Shown in pieces: positions 1 through 11,412 of a stretch of DNA of 64,000 nucleotides. The stretch lies in assembly GCF_057098645.1 (NCBI RefSeq), contig NZ_CM169472.1; one strand, 5' to 3'. A program made the translations under genes and the position numbers. Position 1 is the stretch's first letter. The number at the start of each line of letters is the position of its first letter. Under the pieces are notes generated by a model, which saw only the letters and a list, made by a program, of their open reading frames with translations, made no database searches and was not told the origin of the DNA.

Positions 1-1
1 C

Positions 2-289
2 TACTGGACGCACCCAGAATACGCCAACCTGTTTGGGGATAGAGAGGCAATTTCAGCTGATGAGTTCAGATCTTTCTGCAAGCAGCATGGCATTGAATCA
101 TCAATTGTTGAAATGGAAAACGACAACAATCAAACGGTAATTGACGCGTATTTTGAAGATGGGAATCCAAACATCAGTGGATGGGAGCCAAGCATGCCAG
201 ATGGAAAAGGATGGTTTGTCGGTTCGATTCACGATACAGAAGACGGTCCGATCTGCGTTTGGTTCAGGAATGTAGATAAGGCCGCATAG
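2..289 (+). CDS. Phage early-region protein, C-terminal fragment (5' end outside window)
   Basis: Open frame from the window edge to TAG at 287..289 (about 95 codons), same strand as the downstream phage operon. No start codon in window. Confidence 0.35.
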   Translation, partial: YWTHPEYANLFGDREAISADEFRSFCKQHGIESSIVEMENDNNQTVIDAYFEDGNPNISGWEPSMPDGKGWFVGSIHDTEDGPICVWFRNVDKAA

Positions 290-352
290 TCGGCCTTTAT
301 TTTTGGCATAAACAAGAGAATAAACACTGCACTGAATTATTTGAGGTGAGAT

Positions 353-823
353 ATGACAAAATCATGGAGCGTACCTTTTCCTGAATCAGAAACTGAACAT
401 GATGGAATGCCTGTTTTCTGGAGATTCCAAGCGACAGTTGAAGAAGATGGAATCAAAATATTCGCACTTCAATATATAGCTTTTCATCAGACAGAGCATT
501 ATGCATGGTTGGTTCCTTCGCATTGGATTGTTAATTTTAAACCAGCACCAAATCAGTGGTTACAGGAATGGAAACAAAGGAGAAATAGATATGCAATTAA
601 GAAAGTAGCAAAAAATGCAGAAAGATCTTTTGCATTCCCGACGAAGAAACTTGCCATTGAAAGTTTATTGCGCCGGAAGAAATACCATTTGATGAGAATC
701 AAACAAGATTTGGCTGTTGTATCAACTCTTGTTGATGGGATGAAGAATATTGATACATCAACACCAGATATTGAATATAACTTTGGACACAACCAAGAAA
801 CAGAAAATTGGGTGTTTTATTAG
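353..823 (+). CDS. Hypothetical phage protein (156 aa), function unknown
   Basis: ORF with a GAGGTGA Shine-Dalgarno-like sequence just upstream of the ATG. AT-rich codon usage typical of phage accessory genes. No family recognised. Confidence 0.55.
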   Translation: MTKSWSVPFPESETEHDGMPVFWRFQATVEEDGIKIFALQYIAFHQTEHYAWLVPSHWIVNFKPAPNQWLQEWKQRRNRYAIKKVAKNAERSFAFPTKKLAIESLLRRKKYHLMRIKQDLAVVSTLVDGMKNIDTSTPDIEYNFGHNQETENWVFY

Positions 824-973
824 TACGAATAAGCACTGTATATTCATTCCAACGAGTGAATACACGGAGCAATGTCGCTCGTAACTAAACAGGAGCCGAC
901 TTGTTCTGATTATTGGAAATCTTCTTTGCCATCCAATGTGAGGGCGTTTTTTTATCTATGAGGATATGAATAG

Positions 974-1342
974 ATGTCAAACATCAAAAAATACATCATT
1001 GATTACGACTGGAAAGCATCAATAGAAATTGAAATCGACCATGACGTAATGACAGAGGAAAAACTTCACCAGATTAATAATTTCTGGTCAGACTCTGAAT
1101 ACCGACTCAATAAACACGGCGCTGTATTAAATGCTGTATTAATCATGCTGGCGCAACATGCTCTGCTTATAGCAATTTCGAAAGACTTAAATGCATATGG
1201 TGTTGTTTGTGAGTTCGACTGGGATGATGGAAATGGTCAGAAAGGATGGCCTCCAATGGATGGTAGTGAAGGAATAAGAATTACCGATATCGATACATCA
1301 GGAATATTTGATTCAGATGATATGACTATCAAGGCCGCCTGA
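974..1342 (+). CDS. ea10: Lambda Ea10-like protein
   Basis: 122-aa translation matches my recollection of lambda Ea10 and sits immediately upstream of cIII, as in lambda. Confidence 0.7.
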   Translation: MSNIKKYIIDYDWKASIEIEIDHDVMTEEKLHQINNFWSDSEYRLNKHGAVLNAVLIMLAQHALLIAISKDLNAYGVVCEFDWDDGNGQKGWPPMDGSEGIRITDIDTSGIFDSDDMTIKAA

Positions 1343-1414
1343 GTGCGGTTTTACCGCATACCAATAACGCTTCACTCGAGGCGTTTTTCGTTATGTATAA
1401 ATAAGGAGCACACC

Positions 1415-1579
1415 ATGCAATATGCCATTGCAGGGTGGCCTGTTGCTGGCTGCCCTTCCGAATCTTTACTTGAACGAATCACCCGTAAATTACGTGACGG
1501 ATGGAAACGACTTATCGACATACTTAATCAGCCAGGAGTCCCCAAAAATGGATCAAATACTTATGGCTATCCAGACTAA
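1415..1579 (+). CDS. cIII: CIII (FtsH inhibitor, stabilises CII)
   Basis: 54-aa translation [54 protein letters not shown], recognised as lambda CIII. Internal ATG at 1415 with AAGGAG RBS upstream. Confidence 0.8.
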   Translation: MQYAIAGWPVAGCPSESLLERITRKLRDGWKRLIDILNQPGVPKNGSNTYGYPD

Positions 1580-3874: not shown

Positions 3875-3954
3875 CAACCACTGAATGCATTTTTCTGGCA
3901 GCGGGCTTCATATTCTGTGTGCTTATGCTTGCCGACATGGGACTTGTTCAATGA
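3871..3954 (+). CDS. Putative 27-aa hydrophobic micropeptide
   Basis: ATG at 3871 overlaps the upstream stop (ATGA). Translation MTTTECIFLAAGFIFCVLMLADMGLVQ is one predicted transmembrane helix. Its stop overlaps the next ATG (3951). Confidence 0.3.
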   Translation: MTTTECIFLAAGFIFCVLMLADMGLVQ

Positions 3955-4166
3955 CACCTCAGCAAGAAAACGCCCTTCGCAGTATTGCCCGTCAGGCTAA
4001 TTCTGAAATCAAAAAAGCCAGACAGCAGTTTCCGGATAAAAACGTCGATGACATTTGCCGTAGCGTACTGAAGAAGCACCGCGAAACGGTAACGCTGATG
4101 GGATTCACACCGACTCACTTAAGTCTGGCAATCGGTATGTTAAACGGCGTCTTTAAGGAACGGTGA
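3951..4166 (+). CDS. Small phage ORF (71 aa)
   Basis: Internal ATG of ORF 3885..4166, chosen because it is translationally coupled to the upstream micropeptide. Translation MTPQQENALRSIARQANSEIKKARQQF... Confidence 0.4.
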   Translation: MTPQQENALRSIARQANSEIKKARQQFPDKNVDDICRSVLKKHRETVTLMGFTPTHLSLAIGMLNGVFKER

Positions 4167-4264
4167 ACATGAAAAGCAAAATCATCAGGGAGCTACAGGC
4201 TCCTTTTTTATTATTCGCATTCACCCTCAAGCGTATTAACCAACAATTCAGGGATTAATGAAAG

Positions 4265-6448: not shown

Positions 6449-7735
6449 ATGAGTAACGCATCATACCCGACAGGCGTTGAAAACCATGGAGGATCACTCC
6501 GTATATGGTTTCACTATAATGGCAAACGTGTCAGAGAAAACCTCGGTGTTCCTGACACCGCCAAAAACCGGAAGATCGCTGGTGAGCTTCGCACTTCTGT
6601 TTGTTTTGCAATCAGAATGGGGAGTTTCGACTACGCCGCGCAGTTCCCTAATTCCCCTAACCTGAAACACTTTGGTCTGGGAAAAAGAGAGATAACCGTT
6701 AAGGCACTTTCGGAAAAATGGTTGGACCTTAAGAAAATTGAGATTTGTACGAATGCACTTAACCGTTACCAGTCAGTAATTAAAAACATGTTACCAATGT
6801 TAGGTGAAAAAAAACTGGTTTCATCCATAACAAAAGAGGATTTACTTTTCGTAAGGAGAGATTTGTTGACCGGTTACCAAAAGCTTTCTAATGGAAAGAC
6901 TTCTTCCATAAAAGGGCGCTCAGTGGTCACGGTAAACTACTATATGACAACCATAGCTGGAATGTTTCAATTTGCAACAGATAATGGTTATACCTCAGGA
7001 AACCCATTTAACGGTCTGGCTCCCTTAAAAAAGTCCAAGGTAAAACCAGATCCTCTCACCCGTGACGAATTTATTCGTTTTATTGAGGCTTGCCGTCATC
7101 AACAAACAAAAAACCTGTGGATTCTCGCTGTATACACGGGTATTCGTCACGGGGAGTTGGTATCGCTGGCATGGGAAGATATAGACCTTAAAGCAAGGAC
7201 TATAACCATCCGTAGAAATTATACAAAACTTGGCGAATTCACTCCACCAAAAACCGATGCTGGCACCGGAAGGACAATTCATCTGGTTCAACCAGCTATT
7301 GATGCTCTTAAAAGCCAAGCGGAAATGACCATGCTTGGAAAGCAACATTCTGTAGAGGTAAAGCAGAGGGAATATGGGAGAACTGCTGTGCATAAATGTA
7401 CTTTTGTTTTTAGCCCTCAGGTAATAAAACAGCAGCTGTTGTCTGGACCTCACTACAAAGTTGACTCCATCAGGGAGTCATGGACAAGTATCTTAAAACG
7501 CGCAGGTCTGAGACACAGAAAATCGTACCAATCCAGGCATACTTATGCATGCTGGTCACTTGCCGCTGGAGCTAATCCTAGTTTTATCGCAAGCCAGATG
7601 GGCCACACAAACGCACAAATGGTATTCAATGTTTACGGAGCATGGATGAAAGACAACAATCACGAACAGATAGAACTCCTTAACAAAAGACTATCTGAAA
7701 GTGTCCCATGTATGCCCCATAAGAAAGTGGGGTAA
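6449..7735 (+). CDS. int: Phage integrase, tyrosine recombinase family
   Basis: 428 aa. C-terminal catalytic region with conserved Arg/His and terminal Tyr (RHTYACW...GHTNAQMVFNVYGAW). Last phage gene before the host junction. Confidence 0.9.
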   Translation: MSNASYPTGVENHGGSLRIWFHYNGKRVRENLGVPDTAKNRKIAGELRTSVCFAIRMGSFDYAAQFPNSPNLKHFGLGKREITVKALSEKWLDLKKIEICTNALNRYQSVIKNMLPMLGEKKLVSSITKEDLLFVRRDLLTGYQKLSNGKTSSIKGRSVVTVNYYMTTIAGMFQFATDNGYTSGNPFNGLAPLKKSKVKPDPLTRDEFIRFIEACRHQQTKNLWILAVYTGIRHGELVSLAWEDIDLKARTITIRRNYTKLGEFTPPKTDAGTGRTIHLVQPAIDALKSQAEMTMLGKQHSVEVKQREYGRTAVHKCTFVFSPQVIKQQLLSGPHYKVDSIRESWTSILKRAGLRHRKSYQSRHTYACWSLAAGANPSFIASQMGHTNAQMVFNVYGAWMKDNNHEQIELLNKRLSESVPCMPHKKVG

Positions 7736-8619: not shown

Positions 8620-9331
8620 GCGCCTGCACCAGCCTTTCAAACAGGCGGTCTGCGATGATCGCCGCCAGTGCCACCAGTAACGCCCCCTGGATCACATACG
8701 CGGTATTAAATCCGCTAAGCCCGATGATGATGGGCGTACCCAGCGTGCTGGCCCCTACCGTTGAGGCGATCGTCGCCGTACCAATGTTGATAATCACCGA
8801 AGTTCGCACGCCCGCCAGAATCACCGGAGCCGCCAGCGGTAGCTCGACCTTACGCAGTCGCTGACCACGACTCATTCCCATACCTTTCGCAACTTCTGTC
8901 ACGCTGGCATCAATCGCTCCCAGCCCGGCAAGTGTCGCCTGCAGGACGGGCAGCACACCGTAAAGGATCAAGGCGATAATCGCTGGTTGCAGACCAAAGC
9001 CGATCACCGGAACGGCGATCGCCAGCACTGCGACGGGCGGAAAAGTCTGTCCAACGGCGGCAATAGTTTCCACCAGTGGGCGAAATTCCGCGCCCCACGG
9101 GCGAGTGACAGCAATTCCGGCACCAGTGCCAATGATCACCGCAAACAAACTCGAAATTCCCACCAGCCAGAAATGAGCCAGTGCCAGAGCTGCAAAACTT
9201 TCTTGCTGATAAACGGGTCGTGGCAGTTGTGGGAACAAGGCAGCAAACAGCGGCTGGCTGTAAGGCAGCCAGAAAATCAGCGCCACAAACAGAGCAATGA
9301 GCCAGAACAGCGGATCGCGCAACATCTTCAT
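8600..9331 (-). CDS. yehW: Glycine betaine/osmoprotectant ABC transporter permease
   Basis: 243-aa polytopic membrane protein, first (promoter-distal) gene of the yehZYXW cluster. Confidence 0.85.
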
Positions 9332-9335
9332 ACGC

Positions 9336-10262
9336 TTACGCCTCCACCAGCAGATCCTGAAAATGCAGCGTGCCGCAAGGCTGGCCCTGCATGTTCACCA
9401 CCGGCAGCACCTCGCATCCCCGCGCAACAAACAGAGAGAGCGCATCGCGTAGCGTCATCTCTTCTGCCAGTGCCTCACCATCTGCTCGTTCTTCGCGACG
9501 CACGTAATCCGCCACACTACGTAACGAAAGCAGGCGCACACCCAGTTCACTACGTCCAAAAAACTGGCGGACAAAATCATTCGCCGGACGAGTCAGCATC
9601 GTCAGCGGATTGCCCTGCTGCACTACTTCACCGTGATCCATCAATACCAGATGTTCTGCCATCCGTAGCGCCTCATCAATATCATGAGTGACCAGCACAA
9701 TGGTACGCCCCAGCAAACGGTGAATGCGCGTCATCTCTTGTTGCAACGCGCCGCGCGTTACCGGGTCCAGTGCGCCAAAAGGTTCATCCATTAGTAAGAC
9801 TTGCGGATCGGCAGCCAGTGCACGCGCCACTCCCACACGTTGCTGCTGACCACCGGAAAGCTGATGCGGATAACGCTCACGCAAATTTGACTCCAGCCCC
9901 AGTAGCGCCATTAATTCGTCGATACGATCGTCAATCCGCGCCCGCGACCATTTTTGTAATTGCGGCACGGTAGCGATGTTTTGCGCCACGCTCCAGTGGG
10001 GGAACAGGCCAATAGATTGAATGGCATAGCCCATCCGGCGGCGCAACTCCAGTACTGGCAGCGAGCGAATTTCTTCTCCGGCAAAGCGGATCTCTCCGCT
10101 GTCATGCTCCACCAGGCGGTTAATCATTTTCAGGGTGGTGGATTTGCCGGAGCCAGATGTGCCAATCAGCACCGAAAAACTCCCTTCCTGAAAATTGAGA
10201 TTGAGATCGTTAACGGCTTTTTGTGCGCCGAACAGTTTGCTGACATGGCTAAATTCAATCAT
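9336..10262 (-). CDS. yehX: Osmoprotectant ABC transporter ATP-binding protein
   Basis: Walker [10 protein letters not shown] and ABC signature LSGGQQQRV in the translation. Confidence 0.88.
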
Positions 10263-11412
10263 TACGTTTCACCTTCAGCAGTGCGATAAGCAAATCGAAC
10301 AGCGCGTCGGTAAGCACCGCCAGAACAATTACCGGGATCACCCCCAGCAACACTAAATCAATGGCGCTGCTTAGCAGCCCCTGGAAAACCAGCGCACCAA
10401 AACCGCCTGCGCCGATTAACGCCGCAATCACCGCCATACCTACAGTTTGCACCATCACCACCCGCAGGCTGCGCAGAAATACCGGTAACGCCAGCGGTAA
10501 CTGAACATGCAGGAAACGCTGCGCCCCGCTCATCCCCATCGCTCTGGCGCTTTCCAGCACATCGCGCGGGATCTGGTTCAAACCGACTACCACGCCGCGC
10601 ACCAGCGGCAGCAAGGCATAGAGCACCAGCGCAATCAGTGCGGGTGTCATTCCGGTTCCTGCTATGCCGAGCGTCCCCAGCCACGGAAAGGCCGTAACCA
10701 GCGCGGCAAGCGGCGCAATCAACAGGCCAAAGAGCGCCACCGAAGGCACGGTCTGAATCACATTGAGCAGAGAAAAAATTGCCCCCTGCCGAGCAGTGGA
10801 AAAGTAGCACCAGATGCCCAACGGCACACCAATCACTAACGCAGGCAGCACCGCACCAAACAGCAACGTCAGATGTTGTGCCAGCGCGTCGTCAAACACA
10901 TCCTGACGGTTGGCGTATTCTTTCATTAGTGAGAGATCGTTAAGCGTGCCGGAGTACAGCAACCACAGCGGAATAATGGCAATCTGCATATGCAACAACC
11001 AGCGCCACAGCGGATGCGTGGAGATTCGGCGGATGGCATCGCTACAGGCCAGCAATGCCAGCGCCGCAGCCAGCCAGAAACCACTGCCGAGGCTGGTACG
11101 CGCCAGCGCACTGCCATTTTGCGCCAGTTGGGTCGCCGCCTTTCCAGCTCCCCACACCAGCAATACGAAGACGAATTGCGCCAGAATGAGTGCACAAATG
11201 CTGCCTTTTTTACCGGGAATAAAACAGGCCGTCAGCCAGGCGCAACCAACGCCCACCAGCATCCAGATCGTTTGCGGCCACAGCTGCCAGAGATGACGCC
11301 CCTCACCCGAAACTAAACGATTAGGCGCGTAACTGATAAACGGCAGCGCCGCTGCGATTGCCGTCAGCAACAGCAGCAGCGCCAGAACAGGATTAATACG
11401 GAAATAAGTCAC
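10255..11412 (-). CDS. yehY: Osmoprotectant ABC transporter permease
   Basis: 385-aa polytopic membrane protein between the ATPase and the binding protein. Confidence 0.85.

Follow-up and report, generated by a model that had tools for sequence, protein, structure and literature searches.

What does the small protein encoded between N and cIII in the early-left operon of many lambdoid prophages do? The window analyzed here, by which we mean the whole stretch of 64,000 nucleotides, starts inside such an operon, in a lambdoid prophage located beside mlrA (yehV). The left arm of the prophage occupies positions 1..~7731, with the int end near 7731, and from ~7752 onward the DNA is that of the E. 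coli chromosome, carrying mlrA, yohO, yehW/X/Y, osmF, and bglX. The original prediction, made from the letters alone, had singled out an open reading frame at 353..823 on the + strand, here called ORF156, as lying in the anti-restriction or exclusion slot of the operon, and had asserted of the frame itself that it was well formed and preceded by a good ribosome binding site.

That assertion was borne out. The ORF list and translation place the ATG at 353 and the end of the stop codon at 823, giving a product of 156 amino acids and 18.6 kDa. A Shine-Dalgarno sequence, GAGGTGA, is found at 343..349 on the same strand, and its GAGG core (343-346) lies 6 nt before the ATG. The frames that overlap ORF156 are each shorter and lack support. 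Full-length homologues with 54-99% identity were found in Escherichia, Pectobacterium, Cronobacter, Brenneria, and Rosenbergiella, and they align with few gaps. The alignment has 39 invariant columns, which include the N-terminus, and since the homologues begin with the conserved MTKSW, MSKSW, or MSESW, the start at position 353 is confirmed. Codon comparison with the HK97 gene gave pN 0.005, pS 0.088, and dN/dS 0.057, and comparison with homologues of 62-83% identity gave pN 0.10-0.24 and pS 0.78-0.90, indicating that synonymous sites are saturated. These values are those of a gene under purifying selection. A chance ORF or a pseudogene making no product would account for the lack of annotation and for nothing else; the low dN/dS, the synonymous saturation alongside a conserved protein, the full-length conservation across genera, and a confidently predicted fold (pLDDT 96, described below) refute that reading and leave it with practically no probability.

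The identity of the protein is equally well established. A profile search matched PHROG 1636 with an E value of 7.3e-112 over residues 1-156 of 156. The protein is 99.4% identical over all 156 residues to L0079 of phage 933W (AAD25424), and 98.7% identical both to Gp45 of HK97 (NP_037731) and to the copy in H-19B. Copies of 933W L0079, to which ORF156 is likewise 99.4% identical, are carried by many Stx1 and Stx2 phages, among them phi24B, BP-4795, Min27, and Stx2-86, in which the gene is orf57. We consider it near-certain that ORF156 is a genuine gene and that it is HK97 gp45/933W L0079. It is also very common: the DNA of window positions 1-900 was matched in 2228 of 5426 complete E. coli genomes (41%). 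The sources nonetheless call the product a "hypothetical protein" or "Prophage protein," with "Gp45" used for HK97 only, and no function is assigned to it in PHROG, Pfam, NCBIfam, PADLOC, PDB, or the phage records. A literature search with L0079, AAD25424, WP_000167599, phrog_1636, NP_037731, and HK97 gp45 found no paper on the protein. The earlier statement that ORF156 matches nothing therefore holds for function and fails for identity. By its sequence, ORF156 is the long-catalogued HK97 gp45/933W L0079/Stx2-86 orf57 and hence is not new; what was observed was correct and concerns a known, uncharacterized gene, a candidate for experiment and not yet a discovery. Three features give it interest: it is very prevalent, it stands at the head of the early program in Shiga-toxin phages, and its predicted fold has no match.

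The genes downstream of ORF156 are as lambda-like as originally described. On the same strand follow ea10 (DUF2528, PHROG 646) at 974..1342, the next gene of the early-left operon, then the lambda cIII thermoregulator RNA (Rfam RF01804, 88.5 bits) at 1402..1460, which as expected lies upstream of and extends into cIII, and then kil, gam, bet, and exo. The order in related prophages is cI, N, a 107-aa ORF, ORF156, ea10, cIII, kil, gam, bet, and exo, which places ORF156 downstream of N and upstream of cIII in the early-left region. Lambda has sieB, orf28, and ral between N and ea10, so the slot is indeed the ral/sieB position of lambda. The same slot holds an 83-aa ORF unrelated to Ral in PA27, and ORFs of 74, 107, and 322 aa in mEp213.

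Similarity to other phages begins and ends sharply at mosaic junctions, found in the window at 279/280, 337, 832/833, and 953-967. Many phage records align from 337 onward, whereas lambda, 21, HK544, and others align only from 832/833 onward. Because similarity starts and stops at these junctions, ORF156 is a discrete mobile cassette, 337..832 (+), set between conserved linkers within the hypervariable interval from N to ea10/cIII. The further claim that this interval is a swappable hotspot agrees with the unrelated cassettes found there in lambda, PA27, mEp213, and HK97/933W. Lambda, PA27, and many Stx phages lack ORF156 and have unrelated genes instead; for the lambdoid life cycle, the gene is dispensable.

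ORF156 is preceded in the slot by another cassette, distinct from its own. The frame at 2..289 (+) encodes the C-terminal 95 residues of a 107-aa acidic protein, which is present in full at 8966..9289 of the related prophage of E. coli PEC240. This partial frame had likewise been said to match nothing, which is correct as to function, whereas the protein itself is known as PHROG 1372. It has no Pfam match and is very acidic, with a pI of 4.2 and 22 D/E versus 7 K/R. Because of this charge, the protein could be regarded as a candidate anti-restriction protein of the DNA-mimic type. Some prophages have the 107-aa ORF between N and ORF156, and it occurs in mEp213 as well; HK97 and 933W lack it. 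A consensus scan revealed a terminator-like hairpin with a T-run at 278..305 (+), separating the 107-aa ORF from ORF156. The hairpin (stem at 278-297) folds with -12.7 kcal/mol and a z score of -2.65; the segment 279-334 is common to other phages.

Downstream of ORF156 is a conserved linker, 833..953 (+), which contains a hairpin (833-870) as well as an intrinsic terminator (928-953). It is common to lambda, where it lies downstream of ral, and to 21, HK544, Sf101, and many other phages. Folding of 824-900, which contains the strong hairpin, gave a z score of -4.56. The terminator stem, GCCCTC-loop-GAGGGC followed by a T-run, is perfect in HK97 and 933W and has one C-to-A mismatch in the window, and the HK97 record annotates this structure as a terminator. 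The linker is probably both a recombination linker and a terminator of the pL operon, although some function as an RNA is conceivable. An sRNA encoded in the linker was also considered and rejected, as there was no Rfam match and the prophage sRNAs AgvB/AsxR and Pas map to other places.

A consensus-only scan of window positions 1-1500 found no sigma-70-like promoter on the + strand. Because no promoter of its own was found, ORF156 is probably transcribed from pL and would be made early after infection or induction. Phages HK97 and 933W have the same protein in the same early-left orientation, followed by the same linker and terminator; HK97 differs from the window in having no ea10 downstream of gp45. 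The homologue directly follows N in HK97 and in the Stx phages 933W, phi24B, BP-4795, and H-19B, whereas in the window the 107-aa acidic ORF and the terminator-like hairpin intervene. The location of gp45 in HK97 and 933W, after N and before the terminator, would have it cotranscribed with N on the first pL transcript. Since the hairpin at 278-297 lies upstream of ORF156 in the window, expression here would require N-dependent read-through.

The ORF156 protein is predicted to be soluble and basic. Its pI is 9.07, residues 76-130 have a net charge of +11, and the GRAVY score is -0.60; the maximum hydropathy over 19 residues is 0.56, and there is no hydrophobic segment. We compared 43 sequences from the wider family, all of which have a pI between 7.65 and 10.1. 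A101 is the sole invariant residue, G33 and T47 are nearly invariant, and a basic motif, KKVxKxxxRxFAF...RK, is conserved. The close Enterobacterales family additionally has a highly conserved N-terminal extension (V7, P8, P10) and C-terminal FGHNxETxxWxF. No residues of catalytic type are conserved among the 43 sequences; apart from the basic patch, conservation is confined to structural residues, a pattern that indicates a protein that binds and is not an enzyme. An HUH or 2H-phosphoesterase reading of the "HxT" motif was rejected, as H45 is replaced in several members and there is no fold match. The basic character of ORF156 and of all 43 family members, together with the lack of a structural match, likewise led us to reject a DNA mimic of the Ocr or ArdA type.

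Database searches did not connect the protein to any established family. There was no Pfam or NCBIfam match to ORF156 at an E value of 1e-3 or better and no Pfam match for any of the 43 members. PADLOC-DB v2 returned only Cas1_II (E 0.017, 12.5 bits), which we treated as noise, and sequence and profile searches of the PDB gave only noise as well, such as a reticulocyte-binding protein (E 0.1) and the GIY-YIG protein UPF0213 (E 0.29). No recognized DNA- or RNA-binding domain was found with the family libraries or by structure search. Taken together, the family, PDB, structure, and Ral/SieB searches revealed no homology to characterized anti-defense, defense, or regulatory families. Domain fusions were also sought, and none were found in the loci examined, where seemingly long matches were start-codon over-extensions, or in large database searches.

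The original prediction had called for a structure prediction, which was run and which yielded a confident alpha/beta fold with no solved counterpart. With the deeper alignment, the AlphaFold2 model of ORF156 had a pLDDT of 96 and a pTM of 0.83; with close homologues only, the same topology was obtained at a pLDDT of 61. The model has strands at residues 19-30, 33-46, and 50-55, helices at 56-59 and 66-74, a strand at 83-86, a helix at 98-130, and an ordered C-terminal tail that is aromatic and conserved. The predicted fold thus consists of a long beta-hairpin with a third strand, two short helices, a short strand, and a 33-residue helix. Our search for a solved structure resembling it found none, and ORF156 is predicted to have a new fold. 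Small beta domains of the Tudor/SH3-like kind (PipX, PWWP, the UvrD/PcrA C-terminal domain, and KOW) were considered and dropped, as they scored below threshold and covered less than half of the protein.

Foldseek searches of BFVD and AFDB50 matched solely uncharacterized phage and prophage proteins, with hosts that include Erwinia, Tenacibaculum, Cellulophaga, Rhizobium, Delftia, Pseudomonas, and Pantoea. One match was a protein of Erwinia phage phiEa2809, a member of the Ackermannviridae (E 4.4e-06, TM 0.59-0.64). The Ackermannviridae are virulent phages. An exhaustive search of 1.84 billion representative sequences gave 48 matches, of which several were fragments of close homologues and three were repetitive junk. 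The remainder include relatives of 130-160 aa with 20-30% identity that belong to PHROGs 13631 and 25384. These relatives and those from BFVD and AFDB, for example in phiEa2809, Tenacibaculum phage Gundel_1, Pantoea phage Nafs113, and Pseudomonas prophages, share with ORF156 its fold, its basic character, an early-region location, and the core motif Y-[YK]-R...G-[ILV]-x-[IV]...E-T...K-K-V-x-K-x-x-x-R-F-A-F-x-x-K-x-x-A-x-x-S-L-x-x-R-K. Unlike ORF156, they are without the N-terminal 18-residue extension of the enterobacterial clade; they too are uncharacterized.

The early regions that hold distant relatives are those of temperate phages and of an Ackermannviridae phage. The relatives sit in runs of small early genes on the same strand. 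One adjoins RecT/YqaJ, another in a Vibrio phage adjoins RecE and a replication initiator, and NinB is also among the neighbors. The homologue in Salmonella phage NX263 heads a same-strand run, with a ParB-like gene coming after it. The relatives found in prophages of Pectobacterium and in marine prophages lie just upstream of xis and int, and those in 33 further viral contigs are ~2 kb upstream of int. To judge by the phiEa2809 match, the Nafs113 homologue (genus Lietduovirus), and the NX263 run, the family is not tied to lysogeny.

Apart from integrase, the commonest recurring neighbor with an assigned function is a DNA methyltransferase, from several unrelated families. A phrog_757 methyltransferase is one gene away in Nafs113, in Klebsiella phage phi_KPN_H2, and in one metagenomic phage, and a phrog_116/23072 methyltransferase is 1.3-3.3 kb upstream in the int-proximal lineage of viral contigs (IMG/VR). 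Two loci, L014 and L015, have a C5 methylase and an Acb2/Tad1-hairpin gene upstream of the relative and on its strand. Coordinates of the methyltransferase and Acb2-like neighbors are 3922..4209 and 4988..5908 in L014, 2465..3166 in L016, 3090..3782 in L008, 7902..8648 in L012, and 2653..4710 in L064. The neighbors in L012 were also considered as tandem paralogues, a possibility discarded when they did not match the ORF156 family profile. A methylase is found within 4 kb in 7/16 family sub-clusters at 50% identity and in 10/26 at 70%, as raw counts without a base rate; the E. coli lambdoid sub-cluster has no methylase neighbor. The methyltransferase co-location may reflect a shared address only, because orphan methylases and accessory genes both favor early-left regions.

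The reading of these data that we favor, at a rough probability of 0.35, is that ORF156 is an early, stoichiometric binder acting in counter-defense or host takeover, the foremost specific guess being restriction alleviation. The protein would act without catalysis, with the predicted patch formed by K84, K87, R91, and R107-K110 contacting either nucleic acid or an acidic host protein, and would serve the incoming phage genome. Counter-defense is suggested by the ral address and by the methyltransferase and Acb2-like neighbors of relatives. Restriction alleviation leads the specific guesses because ORF156 replaces ral and because the distant relatives are often beside phage DNA methyltransferases. 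Lambda Ral resembles ORF156 in being a small, dispensable, early, and cytoplasmic protein encoded on the pL strand between N and the conserved linker preceding ea10. The two differ in length (66 aa versus 156 aa) and do not resemble each other in sequence or profile; aligned with lambda Ral by hhalign, the family profile scored a probability of 0.1% with 1 aligned column, and relatedness to Ral was rejected. The argument for an anti-defense role is circumstantial, as it is composed of the slot position, the methyltransferases of the relatives, and one Acb2/Tad1-like gene in the same run. A DefenseFinder run on phages including phi315, phi345, and phi419 reported only methyltransferases, Ral, and Gam (PMC12502783). 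We found that these three phages carry the ORF156 gene, and it follows from their presence in the set and from the genes reported (PMC12502783) that ORF156 was not flagged in that run. Against counter-defense stands the location of many relatives among recombination, replication, and nin-type genes (RecT/YqaJ, RecE, ParB-like, and NinB).

A more specific version would make ORF156 the founding member of a counter-defense family with a new fold, a basic non-catalytic binder that protects the DNA of the incoming phage against restriction-type immunity or modulates the restriction-modification of the host. Such a family would be analogous in function but unrelated to Ral and would occur widely in phages that infect Proteobacteria and Bacteroidota. 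In Shiga-toxin phages it would be expressed alongside N as development begins. In this full form we regard the proposal as unlikely.

The neighbors that weigh against counter-defense are those expected if ORF156 were instead a nucleic-acid-binding accessory, that is, a helper in recombination, replication, or transcription or a small regulator, whose basic patch would bind DNA or RNA of phage or host, with no link to host immunity. Relatives adjoin RecT/YqaJ, RecE and the replication initiator, ParB-like proteins, and NinB, the lambdoid gene is located between N and the Red/Erf recombination module, and all family members are basic and share a conserved K/R patch; a basic protein of this kind would fit a DNA- or RNA-binding regulator just as well. 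However, ORF156 has no recognized DNA- or RNA-binding domain, it is dispensable to the extent that unrelated genes take its place in lambda, PA27, and many Stx phages, and no neighbor family stays with it from lineage to lineage, the commonest being a methyltransferase in 3 of the first 16. An accessory role is the main rival, only a little less probable than the preferred reading. Host takeover could also take the form of a Kil-like growth inhibitor, which would bind an essential or stress-related host protein and favor lytic growth. The early position right after N and the non-enzymatic character of the family are in keeping with this, and the conserved V7, P8, and P10 and the FGHNxETxxWxF motif are as expected of an epitope for specific protein binding. 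Such a toxic activity would be compatible with stable carriage in 41% of complete E. coli genomes, defective prophages included, only if the gene were tightly repressed, and we consider it fairly unlikely.

The other function named for this slot, superinfection exclusion or defense of the SieB type, in which the prophage would express ORF156 to protect the lysogen, fits poorly. ORF156 does lie where lambda has sieB, it occurs very frequently in prophages, and the record of phage PA28 annotates a "superinfection exclusion protein" beside it. SieB, however, is annotated on the strand opposite to N, whereas ORF156 follows N on the pL strand with no promoter-like site upstream of it. The pL strand is kept silent by repressor in the lysogen. 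The protein has no membrane segment and no similarity to SieB (hhalign probability 0.2%, on which relatedness to SieB was rejected), the PADLOC match mentioned above is not meaningful, and the structural relatives include a protein of an Ackermannviridae phage. An exclusion role is accordingly very unlikely, and functions outside all of the readings given here have little probability between them. If the preferred role in counter-defense or host takeover is correct, ORF156 would add a new protein family to the arms race between phages and hosts and could bear on the efficiency with which Stx phages establish themselves in new hosts; as a minor DNA-binding accessory protein, it would be an ordinary finding.

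Two of the prophages related to that of the window carry insertions or damaged genes. The prophage of E. coli PEC240 (locus L002), whose sequence is identical to the first 900 bases of the window, has an IS1 element at 10089..10783, between ORF156 and ea10, and a second IS1 near cII. In strain USDA5905, the matching prophage has a truncated N and a frameshifted bet, and this copy is therefore probably defective.
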